NCBI GenBank assembly: GCA_019056805.1
Contig: DXJG01000014.1
Location: forward strand, 1-27,913
Source of the DNA: Candidatus Baldrarchaeota archaeon
GTDB taxonomy: Archaea > Asgardarchaeota > Baldrarchaeia > Baldrarchaeales > DXJG01
Length of the DNA: 27,913 nt
Direction: 5' to 3'
In this document: piece after piece, positions 2,466-24,876 of the stretch
Numbering within the stretch: position 1 is the first letter of the stretch
Layout: each line of letters begins with the position of its first letter
Made by a program: the position numbers and the translations under genes
Notes under the pieces: generated by a model
Told to the model about the DNA's origin: nothing
The model's input: only the letters and a program-made list of their open reading frames with translations
The model's database searches: none

Positions 2466-3860
2466 GTGATAATTTTGGCGGAGGAGATTAAACCGTCAGT
2501 ATTATCAAAAGAAGAGATTGAAACTTTTCTAACAAAAATTTCGCCGGAGGAAATAGAGAAAGCTAAGAAAATTAGCCTTACTCCATTGAAAGAAACAATA
2601 TTATTTAAAGGTGAGCCGAGTGGAGCTATCATTATGGATATTGATGGAAACAAATATATTGATTGTACTGCTCAAGCTTGGACTTTAAATATCGGATATT
2701 GCCAACCTGATGTTCTATACGCAGTATTAATGCAAATGAAGCGGCTTACTCATGTAAGATACGGATATCCTACGATTCCAAGATTAAAACTTTTGTTGAA
2801 ACTTTCAGAAATAGCTCCTGGAAACTTAAAGCGAGTATCTTTTAATAATGAAGGAGGAGGTATGGCAATAGAGGCAGCAATGAAGCTAGCGATGGTAAAC
2901 ATTAAGAAAATCGGTGCACATACTTTCATAACGTTTTGGAGAGGTTACCATGGTGCTACTCTTTCCACAATCCCAGCAAGTATGATTATAAGAGTAGTTA
3001 CAAGATTTCCAGGCTTTGGACTCGATAGATTTGTCAAATTACCTTACCCCTATTGTTATAGATGTCCTTTTGGAGAAAAAGAGTATCCAGATTGTGGACT
3101 TGTTTGCATTTCCTTCATAGAAAGAGCAATAACTGAAGCTGTAAGTGCTCCAGTTGTCGGTATGATAATAGAGCCTATGCAAGGGCCTGGAGGCCAGATT
3201 CCTGCACCTCCTGAGTTTCTTAAGGAGCTTAGAAGGATATGCAATGAGAATAACATTTTTCTGATTTATGATGAGGCGCAGGTTGCTTTTGGAAGATGTG
3301 GAAGAATGTTTGCAGCAGAATATTACAATGTTATTCCAGATATCATAGCGCTGACAAAAGCTTTGGGTGGAGGATTCCCTATAGGAGCAATTCTTGCAAG
3401 AGAAGATCTAAAAAACTTTACGGAGGCTGAGGAGCATACTACTTTTGGAAGTAATCCAATAATGTTTGCCGCTGCGCTTGCAAGTATTGAAGTTATTCAG
3501 CGATTAAATCTTCCGAAACGTGCTGAGGAGATGGGTAATTATATTATGGGTCGAATACGTGAGATGCAGGAAACTTATGAAACAATAGGGGATGTTAGGG
3601 GTGCAGGGCTCTTTATTGGGGTTGAATTGGTGAAAAATAGGAAAACAAAAGAACCGTTAGATTTCTTGAAGGTAGATATGTTTTTGAAACAGGCCTTTAA
3701 GAGAGGGGTAATTTTTGATGTCAGTATGCCGATAATATCGGAAAGGGGACAAATTATTAGGAATGTGATAAAAATTAAACCTCCGCTTACCATAACACGT
3801 GAACAGGTAGATAAGGCTTTAGAAGTTTTTGAAGAATGTTTGAAAATGGTTTCTAAGTGA
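2466..3860 (+). CDS. Class III PLP-dependent enzyme (aminotransferase-III fold) with phospho-lyase-like motifs
   Basis: Motifs YIDCTAQAWTLNIGY, GYHGAT, IIEPMQGPGGQI, IYDEAQVAFGRCG, DIIALTKALGGG (PLP Lys), TTFGSNP, GDVRGAGLFIGVELV, NVIKIKPPL. Confidence 0.9.
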   Translation: MIILAEEIKPSVLSKEEIETFLTKISPEEIEKAKKISLTPLKETILFKGEPSGAIIMDIDGNKYIDCTAQAWTLNIGYCQPDVLYAVLMQMKRLTHVRYGYPTIPRLKLLLKLSEIAPGNLKRVSFNNEGGGMAIEAAMKLAMVNIKKIGAHTFITFWRGYHGATLSTIPASMIIRVVTRFPGFGLDRFVKLPYPYCYRCPFGEKEYPDCGLVCISFIERAITEAVSAPVVGMIIEPMQGPGGQIPAPPEFLKELRRICNENNIFLIYDEAQVAFGRCGRMFAAEYYNVIPDIIALTKALGGGFPIGAILAREDLKNFTEAEEHTTFGSNPIMFAAALASIEVIQRLNLPKRAEEMGNYIMGRIREMQETYETIGDVRGAGLFIGVELVKNRKTKEPLDFLKVDMFLKQAFKRGVIFDVSMPIISERGQIIRNVIKIKPPLTITREQVDKALEVFEECLKMVSK

Positions 3861-5008
3861 TAGGGAGGGTGAAGTCAACGGGAACAATTCCTTCCAGCTT
3901 TTTTAAGCCGTATGTGAGAGAAACTAAGAGGTATATGGAAGATGAAGTTCAGAAGTATGGTTCCCGTATTTTGAATATGGTGTGGCAAAGTGAAGATTTT
4001 ATTCGACTTATGGGGAATGAAAATCCCTATGGACCTTCACCCAAAGTTATAGATGCATTAAAGAAAGCTACTCAACGTATCAATAAGTATCCTAGTCCTA
4101 CTTATGCTGATCTTGTTGAAAAAATAGCTGAATATGCTTCTGTAGAACCTGAAAACATACTTTTAGGAGCAGGCTCGCTTGAAATAATGGATGCAGTTTT
4201 CAGAGCATTTTTAAATCCTGGAGATAACGTTATTTTGTCAGCGCCTACATATAAACCCTATATTTTGAGAATAAAGGTGTGTGGTGGAAATTCGACATTA
4301 ATTCCAATGAAGAAAAGCGAAAACGGATTTTCGAGAGATATAGAAAAAATATTAGAAGCTATAAATTCGAAAACAAAAGCCGTAGTTTTTATGAATCCTA
4401 ATAATCCGACAGGAATACCTTTGACCCGAGAAGAACTTGAAAAAGTTTTAGACAAACCAATACTTATAGTAATAGATGAAGCATACTATGAATTCTGTGG
4501 GAAAACTTTTGCGCCACTTATAGAGGATAATGAAAATATAGTAGTGATAAGAACTTTATCAAAGGCTTTTGCTATGGCGGGATTAAGAATTGGATATGCA
4601 ATTGCTGATCAAAGTATCGTGGACTATATTAGTCGTGTACAATTGCCTTTTAGAGTTACAGAACTCACTGTCCATGCGGCAATAGCTGCTTTAAATGATA
4701 TGAAGTATGCAAAGGAAACTATAAGAAAAATATTGGATGAGAGGGAAAGACTTTTCAACGAATTGTCAAAAATGGAAGGTTTAAAACCTTATCCGTCAGC
4801 GGCAAACTTTATTCTTGTTAAAGTTACTCATGAAAAGTATTCTACAGAAAAACTGTCTTCTCTACTTTTAGGTAAACGTATAATAGTTAGAGGATTTACG
4901 GGAACGCCGGGACTTGAAGATGGAGGCTATATACGTATAAGTGTTGGAACTCGTGAGCAAAATGATAAACTTATTTCTGCTCTTAAATCCATTTTAGGTG
5001 GTGACTAA
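3857..5008 (+). CDS. Histidinol-phosphate aminotransferase-like (class I/II) PLP enzyme
   Basis: Motifs GNENPYGPSP, NPNNPTG, IDEAYYEF, RTLSKAFAMAGLRIGY, SAANFIL, YIRISVG. GTGA overlap with the upstream gene. No his genes nearby, so the true substrate is uncertain. Confidence 0.88.
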   Translation: MIGRVKSTGTIPSSFFKPYVRETKRYMEDEVQKYGSRILNMVWQSEDFIRLMGNENPYGPSPKVIDALKKATQRINKYPSPTYADLVEKIAEYASVEPENILLGAGSLEIMDAVFRAFLNPGDNVILSAPTYKPYILRIKVCGGNSTLIPMKKSENGFSRDIEKILEAINSKTKAVVFMNPNNPTGIPLTREELEKVLDKPILIVIDEAYYEFCGKTFAPLIEDNENIVVIRTLSKAFAMAGLRIGYAIADQSIVDYISRVQLPFRVTELTVHAAIAALNDMKYAKETIRKILDERERLFNELSKMEGLKPYPSAANFILVKVTHEKYSTEKLSSLLLGKRIIVRGFTGTPGLEDGGYIRISVGTREQNDKLISALKSILGGD

Positions 5009-6563
5009 ATTGTCTGAAGAATATATTTTAACGTATGATATTGGAACTGGAAGTACAAAAGCAACTCTTATCAGTATTGATGGAAAAATAGCTGCATCTT
5101 CTACGGAAGAATATGGATTAAGTCATCCACATCCAGGATGGGCTGAACAAGACCCTGAAGACTGGTGGAGAGCTGTTGTTACAACTACGAGAAATATTCT
5201 TCAAAAAAGTAAAATTTCCCCGAAAGACATCATAGGGACATCTTTTGATGCTCAAATGATTAATGTTATTCCAGTAGATAAAGAGGGAAAACCTCTTAGA
5301 CCATCTATAATATGGATGGATGCTAGGGCTGGTGAAGAGGCAAGGGAACTTGAAGAACGGGTATCTATAATTTTAATGGTTTCTGCAGGTCTTTTACCTA
5401 TGTTATCAGCAAAAGATGTGACTCCACGTATACTCTGGTTAAAGAAGAATGAACCGCGTGTTTTTGAGAAGACCTATAAGTTTCTTGACTGCAAAGACTA
5501 TCTAATATACAAGCTTACTGGTAAATATGCTACTGATTGGACATGTGCTTTTCTTACTGGTATGTTACATGTACGTGATAAAAAATGGTGTGAAGAATTT
5601 CTTGAATATCTTGGCATAAGTGTTGATCAGTTACCGGAACCACTAAAAACCACGGATATCGTGGGAACATTAACTGATGAAGCTGCTAAAGCTCTTGATC
5701 TTCCTAAAGAAACTCCGGTAATATGTGGAGCGGGAGATGTACCTGCCACCGCGTTAGGATCTGGTGCGGTTGGAAATGGAGAGGCACATGTTTATATAGG
5801 GACTTCTTCATGGATAGGAGTTCACTTAGACCCTGAAATGTACACTTTGGATCCTGATACGGGAATGGGAACTATTTTTTCAGGGGATCCTGAAAAGCTT
5901 CTTCTTACGGGGGAAATGGAGAACTCTGGAAATTGCTATAGATGGTTTAGAGACGAACTTGCATATAAAGAAGTAGAGGAAGCCAAAAAGGCAGATAAAG
6001 ATCCATATTATGTCCTTGACCAAGAAGCTTCAGAAATACCGCCTGGATCGGATAAATTAATATTTTTGCCGTGGATGCTTGGAGAAAGAGCACCACTACA
6101 AGATCATACAGTTCGTGGAGGTTTCGTAAACTTATCTCTTAGACATACACGTGCACATATGATTAGAGCAGTTCTTGAGGGAGTTGCATATCATTTAAGA
6201 TGGATTGTAGATTGTGTAGAAAGGCTTGGATTTAATATAGAATGGTTAAACGCGTGTGGCGGAGGAGCACAAAGTCCTCTTTGGATGCAAATCCTCGCCG
6301 ATGTTACCGGTAAAGAAATACGGCGGGTACATGCTCCACTTGATGCTCCTTCACTTGGTGTTGCAATGATTGTTGGAGTTGGATTAAAAGTTTACGAAGA
6401 CTTTGAAACAGCTGCTAAGAAGCTAATCGGGATAGAAAAAGTGTTTACACCTAATGAAAATAATAGAGGTGTATATGAGAAGCTTTATGGTTGTTTTAAG
6501 GAAATCTATAGGAATCTTAAGGATGTATTTTATGATTTAAATGAAAAGGAGGGAGAAATATGA
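4998..6563 (+). CDS. FGGY-family carbohydrate kinase (xylulokinase-like)
   Basis: Motifs YDIGTGSTKA, EQDPEDWW, IWMDARA, GAGDVPATALG, YIGTSSW, LPWMLGER, RAVLEGVAY, GGGAQSPLWMQILADV. Overlaps the upstream stop. Confidence 0.92.
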   Translation: MVTKLSEEYILTYDIGTGSTKATLISIDGKIAASSTEEYGLSHPHPGWAEQDPEDWWRAVVTTTRNILQKSKISPKDIIGTSFDAQMINVIPVDKEGKPLRPSIIWMDARAGEEARELEERVSIILMVSAGLLPMLSAKDVTPRILWLKKNEPRVFEKTYKFLDCKDYLIYKLTGKYATDWTCAFLTGMLHVRDKKWCEEFLEYLGISVDQLPEPLKTTDIVGTLTDEAAKALDLPKETPVICGAGDVPATALGSGAVGNGEAHVYIGTSSWIGVHLDPEMYTLDPDTGMGTIFSGDPEKLLLTGEMENSGNCYRWFRDELAYKEVEEAKKADKDPYYVLDQEASEIPPGSDKLIFLPWMLGERAPLQDHTVRGGFVNLSLRHTRAHMIRAVLEGVAYHLRWIVDCVERLGFNIEWLNACGGGAQSPLWMQILADVTGKEIRRVHAPLDAPSLGVAMIVGVGLKVYEDFETAAKKLIGIEKVFTPNENNRGVYEKLYGCFKEIYRNLKDVFYDLNEKEGEI

Positions 6564-7891
6564 GTAAAGAAGAAATTAAGGAAAAAGATGAATATGTATA
6601 TTTAGATACCCCAGAAGCATTGCCAGAAGGAGTAGATCCAGAAGAATATATTATAGCGACCTACTATGTATCGTTGCCATTTGGACTTGATATAATAAAG
6701 ATATCTCAAATGGCAGCTATAGAACAAAGTACAGGAACTTGGGTGCCAGTTCCGGGGGAAACTCCTGAGGTGCGAAGGAAACATGTGGCTAGAGTGATAG
6801 CAATATATGAAGTTCCACAATATGAATGGCATGTTCCCAGCGATGTAAAATGGCGACAATACATTGTTCAAATAGCGTATCCAATTATCAATCTATGTGG
6901 ATATCAAATTCCAATGTTGCTATCTACGGTTGCAGGTAATATTCTTAGTGGAGGTAAAATTAAGCTTTTAGACTTATGGTTCCCTAAGAATTACCTTAAG
7001 GGATTTAAAGGACCAAAATTTGGAATAGAAGGGGTTAGAAAGCATCTTGGAGTTAAAGAGAGACCTCTGCTTAACAATATGATAAAGCCATGTACAGGTT
7101 ATCCACCAGAAGTAGGGGCTCGTCTTTTCTACGAGGCTGCGCTGGGAGGAGTAGATATAGTGAAAGACGATGAACTTCTTGCAAATGCAGACTTTAACAA
7201 GGTTGAGGATCGTGTTGTGAAATATATGGAACTGGCAGACAAAGCATATGAAGAAACTGGAGAAAAAACAATGTATACTCCTAACATTACGGATACGCCG
7301 CAGAAAGCATTAGAACTTGCAGAGAAGGTCATAGAGCTTGGCGGCAACGGTCTTATGATAAATTATTTGACTGCTGGATTTGAAGTTATGAGAACATTGG
7401 CTGAGGATCCAAGTATAAACGTTCCAATTCTTGCACATATGGACTTTTCCGGAGCTCTCTACGAAGACCCATACTCTGGCTTATCATCAACACTCGTATT
7501 AGCAAAGCTTCCAAGACTTACTGGAGCAGACATTCTCGTATATCCAGCACCTTACGGAAAAGCACCATTTTTGAAAGAAAGATACATTATGATTGGAAAA
7601 ATGCTCAGATACCCGTTCCTCCACATAAAACCAACATTTCCAATGCCAAGTGGAGGAATAATTCCAAACATAGTTCCGAAAATAATTGAAGACTTTGGAA
7701 ACGAAGTTATAATTGCGGCTGGCGGTGCAATTCATGCGCATCCAATGGGACCTGTTGCTGGTGGAAAAGCATTTAGACAAGCTATTGAAGCAGCAATGAA
7801 AGGCATTCCTCTAAAAGAATATGCACAGGAACACGAAGAACTTAAAGTAGCATTAGAAGCTTGGAAAACTTCGAAACTCCTACCCATCTAA
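6560..7891 (+). CDS. RuBisCO-like protein (Form IV RLP)
   Basis: Motifs IEQSTGTW, AGNIL, MIKPCTG, DIVKDDELL (carbamate Lys and Mg ligands), LAHMDFSG, PYGK, PSGG, AAGGAIHAHPMG. Lacks the RuBisCO K177, R295 and H327 equivalents. ATGA overlap with the kinase gene and a GGAGG RBS. Confidence 0.93.
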   Translation: MSKEEIKEKDEYVYLDTPEALPEGVDPEEYIIATYYVSLPFGLDIIKISQMAAIEQSTGTWVPVPGETPEVRRKHVARVIAIYEVPQYEWHVPSDVKWRQYIVQIAYPIINLCGYQIPMLLSTVAGNILSGGKIKLLDLWFPKNYLKGFKGPKFGIEGVRKHLGVKERPLLNNMIKPCTGYPPEVGARLFYEAALGGVDIVKDDELLANADFNKVEDRVVKYMELADKAYEETGEKTMYTPNITDTPQKALELAEKVIELGGNGLMINYLTAGFEVMRTLAEDPSINVPILAHMDFSGALYEDPYSGLSSTLVLAKLPRLTGADILVYPAPYGKAPFLKERYIMIGKMLRYPFLHIKPTFPMPSGGIIPNIVPKIIEDFGNEVIIAAGGAIHAHPMGPVAGGKAFRQAIEAAMKGIPLKEYAQEHEELKVALEAWKTSKLLPI

Positions 7892-13413: not shown

Positions 13414-14298
13414 TTATTGTTTAAGCAGGTTACTTAATGGTTCTTTTAAACGCCAGTCTTCAAAGCCATATGCTAATCGAAAGTTTCGCGTAACTTCCAT
13501 TAAATTTTCTCCTAAAACCTTTATTTTGCTTGGATCGTATATTCCGAGGGCCTTTTTACTCATTAATTGTAGGAATTTTGCTTTTCTAGGGTCTATACCC
13601 ATGACAAGGCAACCTATCGTGTCTGTTGCAACTATATCTAAGCCAGCAATAATCAAATCCATTTTTACTGGATCTCCATAAATTTCATCTCTTTCTGAAC
13701 CTAGGGTGCCATCTATGATGTTTATATGCGGCTTAACTATGCTTGCTAGATCTGCAAGTTTTTCGTGTATATTTGTGTGCATTATTCCTTTGGGCCAAAT
13801 GCAGCCCATTAAGTTTTTTGCGCATAAAGTTACTCCTGCAATATGGTGAATTTTAAGTTTAGCAACATTGATGATGCAATCTGCCTCCAAAATTGTTTTA
13901 GCAATATTTACTTCTTTCAAAACATAGGCATCAGGAACTTTTATCGTAACAAATCTGTCTTGATTTAAATTAACAAGTTTAATATCGTATTTATCAGCCA
14001 ATTTTGTTAGACCTGTAATTTCAAAAGCTCTATCAGCAGTATCTAATGATAATCCACCCTCAGCAACGGTAATGTCTTCTATACCGAGATTTTTAAGCCA
14101 TACGACTAATGCCTCAATTATTTTTGGATCTGTGACATGAACATATTTGGGTCCCTCTGCAATAATATAATTCGGCTTAATAAGAACTTTTTCATCTTTA
14201 ATTACAGTTTTTTCAGCATCTATCAATTTTAATGCTTTTTCAACATCTTTTAAAGGATCAAAACATTTGACAACAGCAACCTTAACACTATTACACAT
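13414..14298 (-). CDS. DUF362 family protein
   Basis: Motifs VLIKPN, TDPKIIEALV, VAEG, INVAKLKIHHIAGVTLCAKNLMG, IIDG, DIVATD. Confidence 0.85.
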   Translation of the reverse strand: MCNSVKVAVVKCFDPLKDVEKALKLIDAEKTVIKDEKVLIKPNYIIAEGPKYVHVTDPKIIEALVVWLKNLGIEDITVAEGGLSLDTADRAFEITGLTKLADKYDIKLVNLNQDRFVTIKVPDAYVLKEVNIAKTILEADCIINVAKLKIHHIAGVTLCAKNLMGCIWPKGIMHTNIHEKLADLASIVKPHINIIDGTLGSERDEIYGDPVKMDLIIAGLDIVATDTIGCLVMGIDPRKAKFLQLMSKKALGIYDPSKIKVLGENLMEVTRNFRLAYGFEDWRLKEPLSNLLKQ

Positions 14299-14398
14299 TT
14301 TATCAAGCGCCCCTTCTAAAGTAACACGTAATCATGTAAAATGTTCTCAGGATACGAAAATACAGTTTTACTAAATGTTAGTGGTTTAAATTAGATGG

Positions 14399-15853
14399 TT
14401 AAACTATTGGTGTTAAGTTTACTTCGTATTTTCCTTCCTCCACATATATGCTTGGGTGGAGATTTGGGGTATATGGTATGATTCCATATGTTAAAACTGT
14501 TCCTTCATGGGCATCAATTACAAAATGTGTATCTGCAAGGTGATTTAAAGCATCAAGTATCCTTTGGCCATATTTAACTAAGCAGAGTAACACGTCACCA
14601 GCCTGTTTTGCATCAATAACTAGAGAACCAATTATAGATGAAAGTTTATCTTCACCATATATTTGTTGCAAAGTATCTAGACCTATAACCATTAAAGTAG
14701 GTTTACCTATCGTTTCGATCTCAGAAACCATTGTTCTGATTCTTTCATAGTCTTCAAGTATGTTTTCTCCCATTAAATTCGATATATGAGGGTCGTATAC
14801 TTCGCTTTCATTGTAAACAATTTTCTTTGTAAAGTCAACCAATCTAACTAGTTCATTAAATCTCTCTGGTGAAACTAGAGGAACAAGTTTTCTTAACATG
14901 TTTTTAAAAGCTCTTGCAGGAATTCCCGCGGGTGGAATTATAAATGCAGGTTTTTCATTTAGAATTTGGTTTATAATTGTGGGCAGATACATATAATCAT
15001 ATCTGTCTCCTACCTCTCTCCGTATTTCAATTATGTTTAGACTACCGCTTCGATAACCATTCCCCAAAATCTTATCAAGGTACTTTATTCCAGTAGATAC
15101 GAAGTTTTCGGCACTTTCAAGCTGACTAAATGTTTTAAATTCGAGGTTAATAACTTCGTCATAGAAGGACTGCATTTGGAAACATAAAGTTCTAAATTCT
15201 CCATCAACCAGTGTAAATATTGGAACCGGGTTTTTTATTTCTTTTCCTCTAATTTTAATGATTTTTAGATATCTTATTAGTCTTCCATTTTTAGATTTCT
15301 CAAGTTCAACTATTCCATCTACAATATAATCAAGAGGAGTTACGCAGATGTTTTCTGATACAAAAATTACATGGCTCTTGGTGTCTCTCGATATTTCAAG
15401 TATTGCTTCTTCAAGAGAAAAGTCGTCGTTTGGTATGTGTAAATCTGATTTTAAGGCTTCAACGCTGTCAATGACTATTATTGCAGATTTTTCAGTCTTT
15501 TTTATAAGTGAATATAGTTGCTGTAGGAAGACTGGTTTATCAGAAAATTTAAATGTAACAGCGAAATCTTCAGATGAAACAACGGTGGTATTGACTGCAT
15601 CTAAGATGTTGTTTGGAGATAAGAAATCTTTAATAAAAGGATAATCTGTGCAAAGCTCTTCGGGTGTAACTCTTGTCGTTATGTAAAAAGGAACATACCC
15701 ATTTTTCAAAGCTTTGCATAGGGTTAAGGTGAAAAGAGTCTTTCCAGTTCCTGGTTCACCTTTAACTAAAAGTCTAAAACCTCTTAATCTTTTAAAGGTT
15801 GTTAAAATTTCTTTAGGAATAGGATAAGGATCGAGTACCATTATGCTCCCCAC
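14399..15853 (-). CDS. RAD55/KaiC/GvpD-like RecA-superfamily ATPase with two domains, the second degenerate
   Basis: Walker A GEPGTGKT and Walker B IVIDS, plus DYIVDGIVEL and KIRG. The second domain starts STGIKYLDKILGNG but has no Walker A. Confidence 0.8.
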   Translation of the reverse strand: MGSIMVLDPYPIPKEILTTFKRLRGFRLLVKGEPGTGKTLFTLTLCKALKNGYVPFYITTRVTPEELCTDYPFIKDFLSPNNILDAVNTTVVSSEDFAVTFKFSDKPVFLQQLYSLIKKTEKSAIIVIDSVEALKSDLHIPNDDFSLEEAILEISRDTKSHVIFVSENICVTPLDYIVDGIVELEKSKNGRLIRYLKIIKIRGKEIKNPVPIFTLVDGEFRTLCFQMQSFYDEVINLEFKTFSQLESAENFVSTGIKYLDKILGNGYRSGSLNIIEIRREVGDRYDYMYLPTIINQILNEKPAFIIPPAGIPARAFKNMLRKLVPLVSPERFNELVRLVDFTKKIVYNESEVYDPHISNLMGENILEDYERIRTMVSEIETIGKPTLMVIGLDTLQQIYGEDKLSSIIGSLVIDAKQAGDVLLCLVKYGQRILDALNHLADTHFVIDAHEGTVLTYGIIPYTPNLHPSIYVEEGKYEVNLTPIV

Positions 15854-15913
15854 CTAATCACTTATGGCAAACATTATAGAATATTACGATATTTTGCTAT
15901 AAATTTTTTGAAA

Positions 15914-16115
15914 TAGACGGTATTTTAAATTTATTTCTTTTTTCTAAGATAAAAATTATAATAAGGCAAGAGAAGGGAGAATACCATTAATAAATGATAT
16001 CATTGATTATCGTGTTGCGTGGAAAATTATTTATTGAACTTTTTAGTTTATTCTCAAACTGAATTTAAATTGCAGTTCCCTTAGAATACTATTTTTTTAA
16101 AACAAATACCGTCTA
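15914..16115. repeat. 12-bp perfect inverted repeat pair in a divergent promoter region
   Basis: TAGACGGTATTT (15914-15925) and AAATACCGTCTA (16104-16115). Confidence 0.5.
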
Positions 16116-16200
16116 GCAACATAAATATGAATTTTTAGCCTTTAACAGACTTTTTAGAAATGATTCATTGAAATGTATCGAAATATTTATAACACGTTGA

Positions 16201-16226
16201 TAATACTTTTTTACAAAAAAGTATTA
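16201..16226. promoter_or_regulatory. NikR-like operator over the start site of the Ni/Co ECF operon
   Basis: Perfect inverted repeat TAATACTTTTTT-AC-AAAAAAGTATTA (TAATAC-N14-GTATTA), just downstream of TATA TTTATAA (16186-16192) and upstream of the RBS. Confidence 0.65.
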
Positions 16227-16241
16227 CTAGGGTGATGAGGG

Positions 16242-16898
16242 TTGCATATTCCTGATGGATATCTAGACCCGTGGGTTCTGGCGATTTTCTTTATCTTAAC
16301 GGCAATTATGTGGTTTTTAGCATTTAGAAAGGCAAATAAAGTAATAGAAGACAAACATATCCCATTGTTCGCTGTGTTGACCGCAGCGGTCTTTGCTGCG
16401 CAAATGATAAATTGGCCAATAGGACCAGGAGGAACAACCGCACATTTAGTTGGAGGAGCATTAGTTGCAATTTTCCTAGGAGCATACGGCGGACTTATCT
16501 CAATGACAGTTATACTTTTAATACAAGCGCTTCTCTTCGGTGACGGTGGAATAACTGCCCTTGGCGCAAATATTTGGAACATGGGAGTTGTTGAATGCTT
16601 TGTCGGCTATTATCTCTATAAAACAATTAGCAAAGCTCTAGGCGATACATCACGAGGAAAAATTGTAGGCGCATTTTTCGGAGGATGGATAGGAATAACA
16701 CTTGCAGCATTCTTCTGCGGATTACAAATAGGAATCTCAACAATATTTCCCTATGACATTGCTGTTTCAGTCCCAGTTATGACCATATATCACGGCCTCC
16801 TAGGAACCATAGAGGGACTTATCACAGCATTCGTAGTCGGCTATACCCTTAAGGTGAGACCTGACCTCTTGGAATTACCGAAAATAGATCCTCTGTGA
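16242..16898 (+). CDS. nikM: Ni/Co ECF transporter S component (NikM/CbiM)
   Basis: N-terminal metal-binding MHIPDGYL (Nik-type; CbiM usually has MHIMEG), plus AQMINWPIG, TTAHLVGG, QALLFGDGGITALGAN, H..LGTIEGLIT. Confidence 0.88.
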   Translation: MHIPDGYLDPWVLAIFFILTAIMWFLAFRKANKVIEDKHIPLFAVLTAAVFAAQMINWPIGPGGTTAHLVGGALVAIFLGAYGGLISMTVILLIQALLFGDGGITALGANIWNMGVVECFVGYYLYKTISKALGDTSRGKIVGAFFGGWIGITLAAFFCGLQIGISTIFPYDIAVSVPVMTIYHGLLGTIEGLITAFVVGYTLKVRPDLLELPKIDPL

Positions 16899-16909
16899 GG
16901 TGAAACAAA

Positions 16910-17209
16910 ATGAGCGTATTCGTCGAATATATTAAAAGTCGTTGGGTTCTTCTTAGCATAATCGTCATGATAGTAATTGTACTTATAAGCCCTCTATTCG
17001 GATATGCTTATGAACCCATGGACTACGTTGTTGAACAGTTTCATGCCGTTGAACAACAGATTTATGAAGCTCCAATGCCAGATTACATTATTCCTGTACT
17101 CGGAGAAACAGCGATCAGTGGTATACTGGCGGGTCTTATTGGTCTCTTTATTACATTGTTTGTCTGTCTTGCACTAGGCTATGTGCTAAGGGCTCGTAGA
17201 AAAGAATAA
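16910..17209 (+). CDS. nikN: NikN-like / PDGLE-domain auxiliary membrane subunit
   Basis: Two TM helices flanking APMPDYIIP; located between the M and Q genes. Confidence 0.75.
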   Translation: MSVFVEYIKSRWVLLSIIVMIVIVLISPLFGYAYEPMDYVVEQFHAVEQQIYEAPMPDYIIPVLGETAISGILAGLIGLFITLFVCLALGYVLRARRKE

Positions 17210-17242
17210 CCTTATTATTCCTTTATTCTTTCATTATTTTAT

Positions 17243-18106
17243 TTGGTGGCTGAGATTCAAATGCGTAGAATGATAGAAGCATCAACTAAGGAAATTTTGA
17301 AGATATTTAGAGATACTGTGCTATGTGAAAGATATACAAATATTGAGGGCCTTTTTCAAAGATTGGATCCTCGCGTAAAATTTCTTGCAACTATTGCTCT
17401 TATAATAACGGCTGTAGCGTCCGGAAAAATTATAATTCAGCTTGCAATATTGGTATTGACTTTTTTGTTAGCTCTAATTTCTAGAATAAGTTTCAAGTTT
17501 TTCATTGTGAGAACTTTCTTGTTTATACCACTATTTGCTGTAGTAATAGCTCTTCCCTTGCCTTTCATAATAAGTGGCGAAATTGTTGCATCATTTAAAA
17601 TTAATGGTATGTTAATTATGGTTAGTAGGGAAGGCTTATGGGAGATGTTAATTTTTGTGTTGAGAGTATGGGCATGTGTTTCTCTCTCCATCCTTCTTAT
17701 ACTTACAACTAAATGGAATAGTTTATTACATGGATTATCAAAACTTCATGCTCCTCGTCTTCTCATTGTAATTTTAAACATGACATATCGCTACATCTAC
17801 TTTTTCACAGATATGTTGTATAAAATGCTTATAGCAAGGGAAAGCAGGTTAACAGGTCCCGTAGGTACGCTTGAAGCCATAAAGGGGGGAGCTTCAGCTT
17901 TAGGCTCGCTTTTTATAAGGGCTTATGAAAAGGGTGAAAAAATATATTTAGCAATGAAATCACGTGGATATAACGGAGAAATGAAAACAATGGATGACCT
18001 TAAAATTCATAAACTTGACATTATATTCTCCGTACTTGTCGGCGCAATCATAGTCATGATGTTGGTTATGCAGATGTTTCATGAATTTCCCTTTCCTGTG
18101 TTTTAG
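17243..18106 (+). CDS. nikQ: Ni/Co ECF transporter T component (NikQ/CbiQ)
   Basis: Motifs LFQRLDPRVK, TYRYI, ARESR, LFIRAYEKGEKIYLAMKSRGY. Confidence 0.88.
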   Translation: MVAEIQMRRMIEASTKEILKIFRDTVLCERYTNIEGLFQRLDPRVKFLATIALIITAVASGKIIIQLAILVLTFLLALISRISFKFFIVRTFLFIPLFAVVIALPLPFIISGEIVASFKINGMLIMVSREGLWEMLIFVLRVWACVSLSILLILTTKWNSLLHGLSKLHAPRLLIVILNMTYRYIYFFTDMLYKMLIARESRLTGPVGTLEAIKGGASALGSLFIRAYEKGEKIYLAMKSRGYNGEMKTMDDLKIHKLDIIFSVLVGAIIVMMLVMQMFHEFPFPVF

Positions 18107-18109
18107 AGG

Positions 18110-19003
18110 ATGATAAAAGTGCGGCACACGGTATTTGAACTTGAAAACATAACACACATTTATCCGGATGGAACATTGGCGCTCCAAGACGTTTCTCTCA
18201 AAGTTTACGAAAAAGAGAAAGTCGCTGTTTTAGGTCCTAATGGTGCTGGAAAATCTACACTTCTCATGATAATGGATGGACTTATTAAACCAACTAAGGG
18301 TACTGTTCGATTTCTTGGTGAAGAAGTTAAGTTTAATGATGATAAGTTTCTTTATGAGATGAGGAAAAAGGTTGGACTTGTTTTTCAGGATTCTGATGCT
18401 GCTCTTTTTTCCTCAACCATATGGGAAGATGTAATTTTTGGTCCACTTCATATGGGGCTTCCAAAAGAAGAGGTTATTAGGAGAGGTGAAGCTGCTCTAC
18501 AACTTTTGGGAATAGAGCATTTAAAAGATAAGCCTCCGTTTCAGTTAAGTGAGGGGGAGAAGAGAAAAGCTGTAATAGCCTCGGTTTTGTCAATAAATCC
18601 TGAGATTCTTTTACTTGATGAGCCTCTCATTAATCTTGATGCAGCAACTCAAACGATGATCGTAAATCTTCTGGAATCGATGCACAAAGAAGGAAAAACC
18701 ATTGTTACAGCGACTCATGACATAAATGTTGTGCCTTTGATCGCGGATAGAATTATTGTACTTAATAAGACGGTTATTGGCGAAGGCAGTATTGAGGAAG
18801 TGTTTTCTAATGTCGATTTAATGAAGAAAGCAAATCTACATCCACCAGTTATTACCGAACTATTTGTTAAACTTAAAGAATACGGAATCTCAGAACCTTC
18901 TACAAAAATTCCACTAACTGTTAATGAAGCCATCAACTATATACTAAAATTACTAAATGGAACCAGCAAAAATGTCAAAAATGGGAAAAAAGAGCAAACA
19001 TAA
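18110..19003 (+). CDS. nikO: Ni/Co ECF transporter ATPase (NikO/CbiO)
   Basis: Walker A GPNGAGKST, Q-loop VFQD, signature LSEGEKRK, Walker B LLLDEP, H-loop ATHD. Confidence 0.92.
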   Translation: MIKVRHTVFELENITHIYPDGTLALQDVSLKVYEKEKVAVLGPNGAGKSTLLMIMDGLIKPTKGTVRFLGEEVKFNDDKFLYEMRKKVGLVFQDSDAALFSSTIWEDVIFGPLHMGLPKEEVIRRGEAALQLLGIEHLKDKPPFQLSEGEKRKAVIASVLSINPEILLLDEPLINLDAATQTMIVNLLESMHKEGKTIVTATHDINVVPLIADRIIVLNKTVIGEGSIEEVFSNVDLMKKANLHPPVITELFVKLKEYGISEPSTKIPLTVNEAINYILKLLNGTSKNVKNGKKEQT

Positions 19004-19024
19004 GAGATTGTTAAACTAAATTTG

Positions 19025-19795
19025 TTAAGTTTTCTTTCGCCAGTAGGCCCAAGCTCTACCGAGATAAAAACCGGATGGACCAAACATCGTTCTTGGTTTG
19101 CAAATTATTTCTCGAATTTCAAGGCCAATTTGAGGATCAAAGAGAGAATCTGAATACGAAGGTTTAACTACAATTGCTGTATCTAGTCCTCTTTCTGTTC
19201 CACCCATAGAAACAACTTCCTTATCAATTGGAATCACACCTGCATCCGCGGCGGTTACAGCTGAAAGAACAGAAACTTTTAGCCCAGGACAAAATGGATA
19301 AAAGGTTTCATTCATAACGATTTTTGGAGAACTAACTCCAAGATCATGTTCCATTGAACATTCAATATCAGCACCCATATCTGTAGCTGTAACTATGGTT
19401 ACACCAAGTTCTTCAAGTTTCTTTTTCATAGGTCTTCCAGGAAGAAATGGTACTTTCTTTAATCCTTCTTTTTTCCATTTTCTTATTTCTTCCGCCATTT
19501 CTGGAATATCAATCCAGTAACGAGAAGATTCCTTCTCAAGTTTTTTAGAAAGCTTTTCAACATCGTAATAACCGCCAGCCCTAAAAGTAACACAAATGAT
19601 CTTAAAGTTTTTATCTTTTGCAGCTTCAGCGGTCTTTAAAGCACTCCTACCCGTAAGAGATGAAACAACAATATGTTCAATGTTTAATTCTTCGACTCTT
19701 TCTAAGGCAAGTTTTATGGTCATATCAGTATTAACCAGCCCTGGACGCTCAAAATAAAAAATCTTTCTCTCAATTACAGACATTATCACCACCAA
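19025..19795 (-). CDS. Pyruvate kinase C-terminal-like alpha/beta protein (MTH1675-like family)
   Basis: Motifs YFERPGLVNT, HIVVSSLTGRSA, VCVT-like ICVTF, GLKV...AADAG, GG...GLDTAIVVKP, EIICKPR. Confidence 0.8.
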   Translation of the reverse strand: MVVIMSVIERKIFYFERPGLVNTDMTIKLALERVEELNIEHIVVSSLTGRSALKTAEAAKDKNFKIICVTFRAGGYYDVEKLSKKLEKESSRYWIDIPEMAEEIRKWKKEGLKKVPFLPGRPMKKKLEELGVTIVTATDMGADIECSMEHDLGVSSPKIVMNETFYPFCPGLKVSVLSAVTAADAGVIPIDKEVVSMGGTERGLDTAIVVKPSYSDSLFDPQIGLEIREIICKPRTMFGPSGFYLGRAWAYWRKKT

Positions 19796-20100
19796 ATAAG
19801 GGTTTCAGCTATGTTAATAAATCTGTTATGATAAATAAAATTTTACTCAATAATTAGGTAGATATTACATAGTTATAAATCATTTAAGCCAAGCAACTTG
19901 CCAAATAAAATGTGGAAAAGTCATTCATTAAAATTCAATACTCTGACAAAAGGCTCTTCTACCCAACTTTATTACACAGAAAATTCCGGAAAAATTATAT
20001 ATCTGTAACTACGCTACAAAATATGTACACATTTAACACATACTGGATGATGTCTTCCTCATAGCGTAAGATATAAGGCGCTACAATATATACAACAAAA

Positions 20101-21396
20101 ATGAGGGGAGTGAAACATATGAAGAAAACAATTTCAGCTTGTCTTATACTAATATTCATAGGTGCCATGCTTATTCTACCAACATCTGCAACAGCCTTTA
20201 CAACCCCGACGACCATGACAAGAAGCTTAGTAAGCAGTAATTTCTATGTTGAAGCAACACAAAAAGATCCGTTTGCTGACATCACTGACATTACTCCCTT
20301 TCCCGAAAAACAATGGACTTTCATGGTATATATGGCTGCTGATAACAACCTGGACCCTGCCGCTCTTGATGATATAAACGAAATGGAAATGGCAGGATCA
20401 ACCGGAGATGTTAATATTATTGTTTTGCTTGATCGCTGGGACGAAAAAGCGCCGTCAGGGACATGGGTCTATTACATACAACCCGACACAGATCCAGATG
20501 ATATAAATTCTGAACTAATTGGAGAGTTGGACGAAATAAATATGGGTGATCCATTTATATTACAATGTTTTGTTCGATTTGTGACTACGTATTTTCCAGC
20601 GGAGAATTATGGTTTGGTGTTGTGGGATCATGGACATGGTTGGTTTGGAGTTTGCTGGGACTGGACAGATGGAGACTACTTGGATATAGATGAAATTCAA
20701 TGGGCACTGACTGATTTGCCAAAGTTGGCTCTTATTGGTTTTGATGCTTGCTTGATGTCAATGATAGAAGTGGCTTACGATTTTGTTGATCTAGCCGATG
20801 TTATGGTTGCTTCAGAGGAATATGAGCCATGGGATGGCTGGCCTTATGATATGTTTTTAGTGGACTTAGTGAATAATCCATGGTGGACGGCGAAGGAGTT
20901 AGCAAGGGAGATAGTTGATGATTATATAGAGTCGTATAGTACGGATGGTTTTCTACGTGCCTTTGTAACGATGGCAGCCATTGATCTTAAAGAGTTACCC
21001 ACGCTGGTAGAGTTGATCGATGAGCTTGCAGTGTTCTTAATAGATCATTTATCCGAATATTATGGTGTAATTACGAAGGCTAAGAACTCTGCGGATAGAT
21101 ATCCGTTCGGCTTCGCGCCCAGAGGTTCTTTCATTGACCTATATCACTTTGTCAGTTTACTAGAAACGGATAATGGAAACTTAAAACTCCTAGTCGAGAA
21201 AATCTTGAATACATGGGAAGATGTTGTGATTGCTACCAAGTCTTATAATAAGATGCATAAACATGCTCTAGGCTTAACCATATATTTCCCAGTAAATGCT
21301 AAGCTTGGATACTACCCAGAAAAGTATTCAACAGCGGGACTCGACTTCGTGGAAGAAACATACTGGAATGAATTTCTAGCTGCGTACTTTGGTTAA
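20101..21396 (+). CDS. Secreted clostripain-family (C11) cysteine peptidase
   Basis: Signal peptide MKKTISACLILIFIGAMLILPTSATA (likely start ATG 20119), WTFMVYMAADNNL, catalytic WDHG and FDACLM. Confidence 0.88.
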   Translation: MRGVKHMKKTISACLILIFIGAMLILPTSATAFTTPTTMTRSLVSSNFYVEATQKDPFADITDITPFPEKQWTFMVYMAADNNLDPAALDDINEMEMAGSTGDVNIIVLLDRWDEKAPSGTWVYYIQPDTDPDDINSELIGELDEINMGDPFILQCFVRFVTTYFPAENYGLVLWDHGHGWFGVCWDWTDGDYLDIDEIQWALTDLPKLALIGFDACLMSMIEVAYDFVDLADVMVASEEYEPWDGWPYDMFLVDLVNNPWWTAKELAREIVDDYIESYSTDGFLRAFVTMAAIDLKELPTLVELIDELAVFLIDHLSEYYGVITKAKNSADRYPFGFAPRGSFIDLYHFVSLLETDNGNLKLLVEKILNTWEDVVIATKSYNKMHKHALGLTIYFPVNAKLGYYPEKYSTAGLDFVEETYWNEFLAAYFG

Positions 21397-21501
21397 AAAT
21401 GGCAACAATCCACCTATAACATTAAACCACCTTATTTTTTACATTTTAGAGATGTTAAATTAAAAATAGTTGAAATAAGTGACAATTATGGTTAAAATTG
21501 A

Positions 21502-22290
21502 TTAGTTAGTTTTTGTTTTTCTAAATTTGGCTGCTCTGTTTGCGATTAGTGCTGCGATTGCTCCCGCTGCAACTCCGCCATCGATGTTGACTACTGCTAG
21601 TCCGAGGGAGCATGCTTGAAGCATCGCTGTTAGCGCGCTAATTCCCTTTTCGCCTAGACCATAGCCAATTGATGTTGGAACACCTATTACTGGAATATCG
21701 ACCATGCCTGCTACCACAGATGGTAGTGCTCCTTCTCTTCCAGCAACAACTATTAGGACGTCAACATCTTTTTCTATGAGTTCTTTTAGGGAAGGGAATA
21801 GTCTGTGGATTCCAGCTACACCTACGTCATAGGCGGTGATTACTTCGCATCCCATTTCTTCAGCTATTATTCTAGCTTCCTCAGCAACAGGAATATCCGA
21901 AGTACCAGCTGTAATTATACCAACCTTTCCCCCAGTTTTATTAACTGTGAAGCCTTCTTTCTTGACTACAATCATTCTTGCTTTTTTATTTAATTGTACA
22001 CTTGTGTTACTTGAAATTATTTTATTAATAGCTTCTACATGCTTGTTTTCTATTCGGCTAATGATAGCTCGTCCACTTCTTTCTAAAGCTTTTATCACTA
22101 TTTTTGCAAGATCCTCAGAATCTTTTCCTTCAGCTAATATTACCTCTGGAACACCTGCCCTCATATGTCTTTTTACATCTAGTTTAGCTATTGTTTCAAC
22201 TTCTTCGATAGCAGCGATTTTTAAGAGTTTTTCCGCCTCTTCTACTGAAATTTCACCTTTTACGAGTCGCTCTAATATTTCTCTTATCAT
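21502..22290 (-). CDS. larB: Nickel-pincer cofactor biosynthesis protein LarB (PurE-like carboxylase/hydrolase)
   Basis: Motifs GVPEVILAEGK, TAGTSDIPVAEEA, DVGVAGIHRL, AGREGALPSVVAG, PTSIGYG, CSLGLAVVNIDGG. Confidence 0.93.
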   Translation of the reverse strand: MIREILERLVKGEISVEEAEKLLKIAAIEEVETIAKLDVKRHMRAGVPEVILAEGKDSEDLAKIVIKALERSGRAIISRIENKHVEAINKIISSNTSVQLNKKARMIVVKKEGFTVNKTGGKVGIITAGTSDIPVAEEARIIAEEMGCEVITAYDVGVAGIHRLFPSLKELIEKDVDVLIVVAGREGALPSVVAGMVDIPVIGVPTSIGYGLGEKGISALTAMLQACSLGLAVVNIDGGVAAGAIAALIANRAAKFRKTKTN

Positions 22291-22356
22291 ATGAATCCTC
22301 CACTACTATCTGTTCAATTTATAACTTGTCAGATAATTAAGTAATTTAGGTGTATT

Positions 22357-23613
22357 ATGATGATTAAGCGTATCGTTGTTATCGACTGTCAAATGGCTGG
22401 AATATCAGGTAATATGCTTCTAGCTGCTTTAATAAGTTTAGGTGCAAATTTCAACAATATCTCTAAGGTAGCAGTTTCCGTTAAAAAACACCTTGAAGGC
22501 TGTGAAGATGTAATTTTGGATTTGAAAGATGTTGTTTGTGGAGGAATTCAAGCTAAAAGAATAGAGGTTAATGTGAAGGAAAGTTTTGATAAAAGGAGTG
22601 GCAAACAACTTAGAGATACTCTAATTCAATGCTTAAAAGATTTGAAACTTTCATTGGAGGCTCAAAGGTTTGCTTTAGCCTCTTTGGACACATTGCTTGA
22701 GACAGAAGCCAAAGTTCACAAGAAGCTTGTTGAAGATGTACATTTGCATGAGTTGGGCTCTGCTGACACTCTGATCGATATTTTGGGTGTTGCAATGGCT
22801 ATTGAAGAATTAGGATTCTTTAAAGATACTTTAATATATTCAACTCCTGTATCTATTGGCGGGGGTATCTTTAAGTTTTCTCATGGTACTTTTTCTAGTC
22901 CTGCCCCAGTTACCTTAGAAATTTTAAGGTCAAAAGGCTTTGCAATGGTTGGTGGGCCTGTGGAGGCTGAACTTGCAACTCCTACTGGGGTCGCTTTGCT
23001 TGTTAATTTGGTTCATGAGGTTGTTCGTTTTTATCCATCTATGATACCTGTTGTTGTAGGTTATGGTGCAGGGTCTAAAAATTTCAAAGATGTGCCAAAT
23101 GTTTTGAGGATTGTTGTTGGTGAGCCTTTGGATTATGGTCTTTTAAGAGATGAAGTATGTGTTCTTGAAACTAATCTTGATGATGTAGCTGGTGAGGTTA
23201 TTGGTCATACTATGGATAGATTGTTGAGTGAAGGTGTTAGGGATGTTAGTGTTATTCCGATGTTTACGAAGAAAAACCGTCCTGGATATATTGTGAAGGT
23301 AATTGTTGATCGTGAAGATGTTGAAAGAATATCGCGGATTTTAATGGAGGAAACAGGTACGCTTGGTGTTAGAATTATTCCATGTAATAGACATATTTTA
23401 GCGCGAGAAATGATTTCTATTGAAATAGATACAAGACTAGGTAAGGAAACAGTTAGATTAAAAGTTGCTAAAGATAATAAAGGTAAAATTCTTCATGTGA
23501 AACCTGAATACGATGATGTTAAAAGGTTGGCTGAAAAACTTAACAAGTCCCTCAAAGAAGTAGTAAAACTAATTATTAAAAATATTAATTCTATTAAGAA
23601 TAGGTTCGACTAA
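22357..23613 (+). CDS. larC: Nickel-pincer cofactor nickel insertase LarC
   Basis: Motifs DCQMAGISGNM, VHLHELGSADTLIDI, PAPVT, ELATPTG, GYGAG, ETNLDD, KKNRPG, ETGTLGVR, KPEYDD. Single continuous frame. Confidence 0.93.
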   Translation: MMIKRIVVIDCQMAGISGNMLLAALISLGANFNNISKVAVSVKKHLEGCEDVILDLKDVVCGGIQAKRIEVNVKESFDKRSGKQLRDTLIQCLKDLKLSLEAQRFALASLDTLLETEAKVHKKLVEDVHLHELGSADTLIDILGVAMAIEELGFFKDTLIYSTPVSIGGGIFKFSHGTFSSPAPVTLEILRSKGFAMVGGPVEAELATPTGVALLVNLVHEVVRFYPSMIPVVVGYGAGSKNFKDVPNVLRIVVGEPLDYGLLRDEVCVLETNLDDVAGEVIGHTMDRLLSEGVRDVSVIPMFTKKNRPGYIVKVIVDREDVERISRILMEETGTLGVRIIPCNRHILAREMISIEIDTRLGKETVRLKVAKDNKGKILHVKPEYDDVKRLAEKLNKSLKEVVKLIIKNINSIKNRFD

Positions 23614-24155: not shown

Positions 24156-24554
24156 ATGAGTCGCTTTAAAGAAGTTGAATTACTTAAGAAACGATCAAAA
24201 ATAATGCTTGAGGACTCTAAGGAAGAATTATCTAAAGGTCATTACGATTTAGCAGTATTCCTAGCAGAACAGGCAGTTCAGTTATATTTGAAAGCAGTTA
24301 TATTAAATGCAACTGGGACAATGTCTAGAACTCATACTATACGAGATTTAATGGGTGCCTTAAGGGTTATTTATCCACAAAAAGTTGATGACATTGATAG
24401 TTTTGTTAAGCAAAATCGTAGTCTCTTTATTAGATTAGAGGATGCATATATATCCTCTAGATACCTCTTTAAGGAATATGAGAAAGAGGAAGCAGAGGAA
24501 CTTGTTACTTTTGCTCATAAGGTGATAAAATTTGTTGGAGATATTGAAATATAG
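24156..24554 (+). CDS. HEPN domain protein of a HEPN-MNT module
   Basis: Motifs YDLAVFLAEQAVQLYLKA, RTH, LEDAYISSRY; overlaps the downstream MNT gene. Confidence 0.88.
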   Translation: MSRFKEVELLKKRSKIMLEDSKEELSKGHYDLAVFLAEQAVQLYLKAVILNATGTMSRTHTIRDLMGALRVIYPQKVDDIDSFVKQNRSLFIRLEDAYISSRYLFKEYEKEEAEELVTFAHKVIKFVGDIEI

Positions 24555-24876
24555 AATGAAGCTTATGAAGCTTCTTAATGAATGGGTAAAATGGAGTAAA
24601 AGGATAGCAGATGCATCAAAGGAAATATTAGGGGAATGTAAAGTCTTCGTATTTGGTAGTGTTGTCGAGGAGAAAGCTGTGGGTGGAAGCGATGTAGACA
24701 TCTTAATTGTTTATAACAAACTTCCAGAAAGCAAGAGGGAAAGAGCTGAGATTATAGCAAAAATCGAGGAAGAAGCAGAACTACCACTCTATCATCCATT
24801 CGAGATACATCTGGTTAATGAAGAAGAAGCAAAATGGTACTTTAGACATATTAATAAATTTGTCCGAATCTTATAG
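24532..24876 (+). CDS. Minimal nucleotidyltransferase (MNT) of the HEPN-MNT module
   Basis: VFVFGSVV...GSDVDILIV (GS and DxD) and PFEIHLV; 114 aa. Confidence 0.88.
   Translation: MLEILKYRMKLMKLLNEWVKWSKRIADASKEILGECKVFVFGSVVEEKAVGGSDVDILIVYNKLPESKRERAEIIAKIEEEAELPLYHPFEIHLVNEEEAKWYFRHINKFVRIL

Follow-up and report, generated by a model that had tools for sequence, protein, structure and literature searches.

A DUF362 protein with kinship to the cofactor-binding domain of LarA, and its possibly accidental proximity to nickel-uptake, larB and larC genes in a Candidatus Baldrarchaeota archaeon

The window analysed here is a stretch of 27,913 nucleotides of a Candidatus Baldrarchaeota archaeon (contig DXJG01000014.1), in which the gene of a DUF362 protein lies near genes for a nickel/cobalt transporter and for LarB and LarC. 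LarB is the first enzyme of the biosynthesis of the nickel-pincer nucleotide (NPN) and LarC is the nickel-inserting cyclometallase; LarA and its homologues, the users of this cofactor, comprise lactate racemase and 2-hydroxyacid racemases and epimerases. An earlier note, made from the sequence alone, had described a LarA-like motif in the DUF362 protein and proposed that it is an NPN-dependent enzyme served by its neighbours. The likeness to LarA was borne out by comparison of folds and profiles, and the service by the neighbouring genes was found to be unsupported. The reading that we favour, with a probability of about 0.5, is that this protein would be an ordinary DUF362 enzyme having a LarA-like pocket for some metal or cofactor, and an accidental neighbour of a nickel-uptake and NPN-synthesis cluster that feeds two LarA enzymes of the same genome. 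The genes concerned are the following:

13414-14298, minus strand: DUF362 protein of 294 aa (P0001), PF04015 at 172.5 bits
14399-15853, minus strand: KaiC/GvpD-like P-loop ATPase of 484 aa, PF07088 and PF06745
16242-16898, plus strand: CbiM/NikM of an energy-coupling factor (ECF)-type Ni/Co transporter, PF01891; within the transporter, TIGR02454 scores over its cut-off
16910-17209, plus strand: PDGLE/NikN-like component of the ECF-type Ni/Co transporter, PF13190
17243-18106, plus strand: CbiQ of the ECF-type Ni/Co transporter, PF02361
18110-19003, plus strand: CbiO ATPase of the ECF-type Ni/Co transporter, PF00005
19025-19795, minus strand: small protein with a weak pyruvate-kinase C-domain-like (PK_C) match, PF02887 at 29 bits; unrelated spacer
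20101-21396, plus strand: Clostripain-family (C11) peptidase, PF03415 at 194 bits; unrelated spacer gene
21502-22290, minus strand: LarB, NF033503 at 253 bits (cut-off 175)
22357-23613, plus strand: LarC (LarC1 and LarC2 fused), PF01969 at 374 bits; TIGR00299 and NF052512 over cut-off

All the genes that the earlier note had named (nikMNQO, larB, larC and the DUF362 gene) were thus confirmed in place, and its remark that they are not one operon also held. The DUF362 gene and the ATPase gene upstream of it, with a gap of 100 bp between them, are on the minus strand and divergent from the transporter, and the transporter and larB are kept apart by the PK_C-like gene and the C11 peptidase gene. 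The M, N (PDGLE-type), Q and O components of the transporter are encoded by consecutive genes (16242-19003) and make up a NikMNQO-type set, and the scores of the transporter with the cobalt equivalogs of NCBIfam were under their cut-offs. Neither larA nor larE was present in the 27,913-nt window.

The 294-aa product of the gene is typical of the DUF362 family, in its short form. The PF04015 match, for which the cut-off is 24 bits, takes residues 38-230 to model positions 1-199 of 200, and only DUF362 clusters were returned by a search of the ESM Atlas. When its sequence was compared with the chains of the PDB, no match was obtained even at an E-value of 10, and the NCBIfam family name Npun_F2552 was not found in the literature searched. 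The motif reported in the earlier note, H151-HIAGVTLCA-K161 followed by H174, is exact in the protein, position by position. Taken by itself the pattern has no significance: H-x9-K was recovered in 50% of shuffles of the protein, and in 11% it was followed by a His at a distance of 10-20 residues from the Lys; the motif is meaningful because of homology and invariance and not because of the pattern itself. In a 40-sequence alignment of the subfamily, with relatives down to 41% identity, H151, K161 and H174 were invariant, and they were kept in 71-72 of the 72 orthologues read from 80 genome loci, both in genomes with LarB/LarC and in genomes without. The triad is family-wide and not specific to the gene of the window. 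The other invariant residues are K41-P42-N43, T56-D57, E80-G-G, K149, T157, N162, G165, D196, E202, E205 and D226. The closest genomic orthologue (L078:7499-8376, 78% identity), from a Baldrarchaeota metagenome-assembled genome (MAG), was observed as two open reading frames of 110 and 167 aa, a split that is a frameshift, either real or due to an assembly error.

The earlier note had suggested a structural comparison with LarA, and this was carried out with an AlphaFold2 model of the DUF362 protein (mean predicted local distance difference test score, pLDDT, 95; predicted template modelling score, pTM, 0.94). The significant Foldseek matches of this model in the PDB were to the LarA family only (E 1.7e-6 to 1e-4, probability 1.00). 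With VIA-align, 12 LarA-family entries gave Z-scores of 15.6-19.0 and a root-mean-square deviation of 2.5-4.0 A over 204-227 residues, and the next entry, of an unrelated fold, had a Z-score of 6.0. In the tightest alignments, residues 11-272 of the model were laid onto LarA residues 35-270, stopping at 270, and the DUF362 protein therefore matches the N-terminal domain of LarA alone.

The residue correspondence was also recovered from sequence. In a MAFFT alignment of the six DUF362 paralogues and the two LarA homologues of this genome, K161 formed one of only two invariant columns, and H151, which is present in 5 of the 6 paralogues, stood opposite the LarA His. The same pairing was obtained by hhalign of the DUF362 subfamily with a LarA alignment (E 5.6e-4), in which H151 and K161 fell on H172 and K182 in the numbering of the LarA of this genome, that is, on His174 and Lys184 of L. 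plantarum LarA, as the earlier note had proposed. A global hhalign run of DUF362 with LarA was meaningless (probability 0.7). Family models gave weak scores: Lar_N (PF09861) reached 14.8 bits on the DUF362 protein (E 0.017), below its gathering cut-off of 23.3, and the NCBIfam model LarAH6 reached 21.9 bits, against a cut-off of 500. By its modelled fold and the profile alignment, the DUF362 protein is a true homologue of the N-terminal, cofactor-binding domain of LarA. This kinship is not new, being already implied by Pfam, where DUF362 and Lar_N are placed in one clan, CL0471 (PMC11770544); furthermore, in the LarA tree of Desguin and co-workers the outgroup consisted of DUF362 sequences (PMC11770544). 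In the literature that we searched, no paper testing or proposing the binding of NPN by DUF362 was found.

The likeness to LarA ends at several places in the protein. At the position of LarA His108, hhalign put Leu83 of DUF362, within an E-G-G-L segment, opposite the G-x-H of LarA, so that the second catalytic His is absent. In the D-x-T-R segment of LarA, Asp72 binds the ribose of NPN and Arg75 its phosphate (PMC12611868). This segment is absent in DUF362; K41-P-N43 is found instead after the equivalent strand, with a loop longer by 12 residues and T56-D57, in a region where the alignment is unreliable. No match was obtained to the C-terminal substrate-binding domain (LarA_C, PF21113), and the protein ends at residue 294. 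The position of H174 is less easily settled. It follows K161 by 13 residues, the nickel-ligand His of LarA following its Lys by 16, and it ends the second helix after the Lys, the same element that bears His198 (His200 of L. plantarum) in the model of the LarA of this genome. When hhalign was extended and relaxed, however, H174 was paired with a later conserved LarA residue, His217. The evidence is thus split, and the equivalence of H174 with LarA His200 is plausible in topology only, as far as the models go. The invariant carboxylates E202, E205 and D226 of DUF362 have no counterpart in LarA.

Two canonical LarA homologues are encoded on other contigs of this genome, one of them Mar2-like (E 1.4e-96 to PDB 6d6z), and both keep all nine key residues (D, T, R, H, H, K, H, Q and K). 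LarB and LarC are each present in a single copy, and DUF362 is present in six. A genome-wide search for larA and larE, which the earlier note had advised, thus succeeded for the former, and for LarE (TIGR00268) nothing was found above the cut-off in this 91%-complete assembly. LarE was present in a congeneric genome (L092, G089:C195; 318 bits) and in two other Asgard genomes, and an assembly gap is the simplest reading of its absence here. Three of the six DUF362 paralogues carry 4Fe-4S domains, and in two of them a 2x[4Fe-4S] unit interrupts the stretch from the conserved Lys to the next His. The neighbours of the paralogues, examined at L007:15-938, L008:2604-3746 and 576-1274, and L009:111-1094, include a LutB-like LUD+Fer4 protein, a CCG-domain (HdrB/LutA-like) protein together with a ferredoxin, and a FolE2/MptA GTP cyclohydrolase. 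Such contexts hint at a DUF362 family of catalytic modules that are frequently linked to electron carriers. For the copy in the window, neither an Fe-S domain nor a redox neighbour was found.

The neighbourhood of the DUF362 gene was then compared across relatives by tblastn on 80 orthologue loci, with flanks of up to 10 kb. LarB was found near the orthologue at only 1 of the 80 loci, that of the closest relative, a Baldrarchaeota MAG, and LarC, LarA, CbiM and CbiQ were never found near it. When the neighbouring proteins were clustered, no family occurred at more than 9 loci, and the most frequent ones (radical SAM, FtsY, eIF-6 and prefoldin) were uninformative. Only L012 and L078, the two closest relatives, keep DUF362 and the ATPase adjacent. 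The comparison was also made from the side of LarC, at 80 metagenome loci where the identity of LarC was 50-88%. Beside LarC, LarB and LarE were each found at 67 loci, a CbiM-type protein at 17, any DUF362 at 2 and LarA at 1; LarE was beside LarC at those 67 loci but not in the six closest. From these counts it follows that the conserved unit is larB-larC-larE, with or without a transporter. Even LarA, a true user of the cofactor, is rarely adjacent to LarC, and proximity is therefore a poor guide either way. With two complete LarA homologues in the genome, larB at a single orthologue locus and DUF362 at two LarC loci, the proposal that the neighbouring genes serve the DUF362 protein found no support.

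The co-occurrence of DUF362 with the lar genes, a further check put forward in the earlier note, was determined in genome samples and gave no discrimination, since LarC is near-universal and LarA itself fails the comparison. LarC was detected in 256 of 301 sampled Asgard genomes, in 81 of 101 genomes from the phylum of the Armatimonadota hits and in 86 of 91 from the phylum of the Methanocellales hits. In these three phylum-level samples it is near-universal, far above the prevalence of LarA reported for archaea as a whole. LarA is present in 29.5% of archaeal species overall and in 87.5% of Asgard species, its highest known prevalence (PMC11770544). With LarC and LarA so common in Asgard archaea, any Asgard gene co-occurs with lar genes, and presence is therefore uninformative.

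Among 50 genomes bearing a DUF362 orthologue, mostly Bathyarchaeia, 20 had LarC and 19 had LarB, and the orthologues in LarB/LarC-negative genomes kept every invariant residue. LarA homologues were present in 48 of these 50 genomes, and in the matched set of Asgard genomes LarA was found both with and without LarC. Three LarA homologues from genomes without detectable LarB/LarC were checked (L094, G042:C1:293400-296200; L095, G017:C1:418000-420800; L096, G090:C54:6800-9600) and had intact catalytic sets, with the ribose Asp, the Arg, both catalytic His, the tether Lys, the nickel His, the Gln and a further Lys; they include those of a complete Bathyarchaeota chromosome and of a 100%-complete Asgard genome without LarC. 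This suggests scavenging of the cofactor, an unknown biosynthetic route, or LarA homologues that are independent of NPN. The lack of LarB/LarC in 30 of the 50 genomes had been considered as evidence against the use of NPN by DUF362, and it was dropped in view of the 48 genomes with LarA homologues.

A control set of 14 genomes was scored for the presence of LarA, DUF362, LarB and LarC. Bacteroides thetaiotaomicron had DUF362 without LarB or LarC, and Methanocaldococcus jannaschii and C. glutamicum had LarB/LarC without LarA or DUF362. Outside this set, a complete Armatimonadota chromosome (L097, G035:C1:2393000-2410000) was found to encode LarB/LarC and, 112 kb away, a DUF362 orthologue, with no LarA at E <= 1e-10. 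No obvious cofactor user was seen in the larBC neighbourhood of this LarA-less genome; larB-larC are preceded there by genes for a ribulose-phosphate 3-epimerase and for a DUF1537 sugar-acid kinase fused to PdxA.

The remaining genes of the window were surveyed as well. The nearest relatives of the window proteins are those of Odin- and Baldrarchaeota MAGs, which places the organism among the Asgard archaea. A perfect 12-nt inverted repeat (TAATACTTTTTT, 2 nt, AAAAAAGTATTA) lies at 16201-16226 and ends 16 bp before the start of cbiM/nikM; from its sequence it may be an operator, or it may be mere AT-rich sequence. A scan of the divergent intergenic region for promoters and terminators, with bacterial models on an archaeal host, and an inverted-repeat search gave nothing usable. 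No NCBIfam match was obtained for the protein encoded at 19025-19795. On the 3' side of larC a HEPN/nucleotidyltransferase pair is followed by an M28 peptidase gene; the pair, directly after larC at 24156-24876, consists of overlapping genes for a HEPN protein (132 aa) and a minimal nucleotidyltransferase (114 aa), which is the arrangement of a typical HEPN-MNT toxin-antitoxin module. Upstream of the DUF362 gene there are a convergent gene for a xylose-isomerase-like TIM-barrel protein and genes for a CDP-alcohol phosphatidyltransferase and an ArsR/FilR1-like regulator, as well as a RuBisCO-like/FGGY kinase/aminotransferase cluster, in which four tightly packed genes on the plus strand (2466-7891) encode a class-III aminotransferase, a class-I/II aminotransferase, an FGGY carbohydrate kinase and a RuBisCO large-subunit-like protein.

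In the reading that we favour, H151, K161 and H174 would line a single pocket at the C-terminal ends of the beta-strands, together with K41, N43, T56, D57, K149, E202, E205 and D226. This pocket would hold a metal or a small cofactor, not necessarily NPN, with H151 acting as the acid/base and K161 as a residue that contacts the ligand. The DUF362 protein may work with the co-oriented KaiC/GvpD-like ATPase, in a possible two-gene unit. The Ni/Co transporter and larB/larC would constitute a separate unit, which would supply NPN to the two canonical LarA-type enzymes encoded on other contigs, and the proximity of DUF362 to that unit would be an accident of this lineage.

Several observations weigh against this reading and lean towards NPN as the ligand. 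It is the N-terminal domain of LarA that binds NPN, the C-terminal domain binding the substrate (PMC12611868). The three cofactor-holding residues of LarA are among the most conserved in DUF362, and an unrelated ligand would hardly account for this. The 30 orthologue-bearing genomes without LarB/LarC do not truly count against NPN, since intact LarA homologues also occur in genomes that lack them. In the control set, Synechococcus elongatus and Haloferax volcanii have LarB/LarC and DUF362 and no LarA, and NPN is made in the absence of any LarA by about 15% of genomes (PMC11796402). In a rival reading, the DUF362 protein would bind NPN made by LarB, LarE and LarC, tethered or held by K161 and with H174 on the nickel, either as a single-domain hydride-shuttling enzyme in which no residue other than H151 serves as acid/base, or as a protein that carries or stores the cofactor. 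The LarA N-domain fold (Z up to 19), the alignment of H151 and K161 with His174 and Lys184, the position of H174 in a helix topologically equivalent to the nickel-ligand helix, the invariance of all three residues, and the presence of LarB, LarC and a nickel-type transporter within 10 kb would all fit with this, as would the existence of orphan NPN producers with DUF362 among the control genomes and of a known NPN enzyme outside LarA, the aldo-keto reductase (AKR) NphT (PMC13524815). However, the subfamily has no conserved synteny with lar genes, and larB/larC of this genome are already accounted for by its LarA enzymes. K-P-N and a longer loop appear to stand in place of the ribose Asp and phosphate Arg, and Leu83 stands in place of His108; there is no substrate-binding domain, and in the extended profile alignment H174 falls opposite another LarA His. 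DUF362 occurs in B. thetaiotaomicron without LarB/LarC, LarB and LarC occur in M. jannaschii in the absence of both LarA and DUF362, and the paralogues with 4Fe-4S between the Lys and the His point to one-electron chemistry. On this balance we consider the binding of NPN by the DUF362 protein to be possible but doubtful.

In another explanation, of a kind that the paralogues suggest, DUF362 would be a metal-dependent or redox module that holds its substrate beside a directly coordinated metal (His/His/Glu/Asp), the short form relying on a separate electron carrier or on a redox-neutral step. Half of the paralogues in this genome (3/6) have 4Fe-4S domains, paralogues adjoin LutB-like LUD+Fer4, CCG-domain (HdrB/LutA-like) and FolE2/MptA proteins, and E202, E205 and D226 are invariant, specific to DUF362 and without a LarA counterpart; but the copy in the window has neither an Fe-S domain nor a redox neighbour, and we regard this explanation as unlikely for it. 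A non-catalytic role beside the adjacent KaiC/GvpD-like ATPase, as its partner or its client (a regulated ligand sensor, for instance), seems very improbable for the protein. The two genes share a strand with a 100-bp gap and stay paired in the two nearest relatives, yet at the other 78 orthologue loci they are not paired, and the strict invariance of about 20 polar residues resembles an active site.

If DUF362 proteins do use NPN, a large uncharacterised family, with six copies here and widespread in anaerobes, would gain a cofactor and a chemistry, and part of the puzzle of the LarA-less NPN makers would be solved. We would only tentatively entertain the wider view that the family consists of single-domain NPN proteins, which would retain the tether Lys, one catalytic His and the nickel His of LarA on the cofactor-binding domain alone, would carry out hydride chemistry without a substrate domain, some of them wired to Fe-S clusters, and would be one of the missing users in LarA-less NPN makers. 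To this case the window adds little: it confirms the fold and the conserved Lys/His residues, its lar genes appear to have other clients, and the linkage appears to be accidental.

Among known systems, LarA (PF09861 and PF21113; PDB 5HUQ, 6D6Z, 2YJG, 9EIA and 9Q3J) is the nearest in fold, and DUF362 shares with it the N-domain, the tether Lys and the His174-type His, whereas the C-terminal domain and His108 are lacking, the ribose Asp and the phosphate Arg appear not to be kept, and the Lar_N score is below the cut-off. LarA_Bw and LarA_Sp demonstrate that the NPN scaffold works with one acid/base His (PMC12611868); they have Asn for His174 and keep His108, DUF362 being the reverse, and unlike DUF362 they keep both domains and the Asp and Lys contacts to the cofactor. 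NphT is a precedent for a cofactor user outside LarA, an NPN-dependent hydride transferase of AKR fold that was found through its larBCE linkage and a His/Lys pair and whose mass rises by about 450 Da, from 32,559.7 to 33,009.6 Da (PMC13524815). Its TIM-barrel fold is unrelated, and it is encoded in 427 clusters beside larBCE, in contrast to the DUF362 subfamily, which has no such linkage. Within its own family the window protein shows no difference of note beyond its short form. PF04015 comprises uncharacterised proteins of the COG2006 type; other members carry 4Fe-4S domains or twin-arginine translocation (Tat) signals, of which the window protein has neither, and its K-P-N, E-G-G, K-x-H, T-x3-K-N-x2-G and M-H motifs recur in its paralogues and in hundreds of orthologues.

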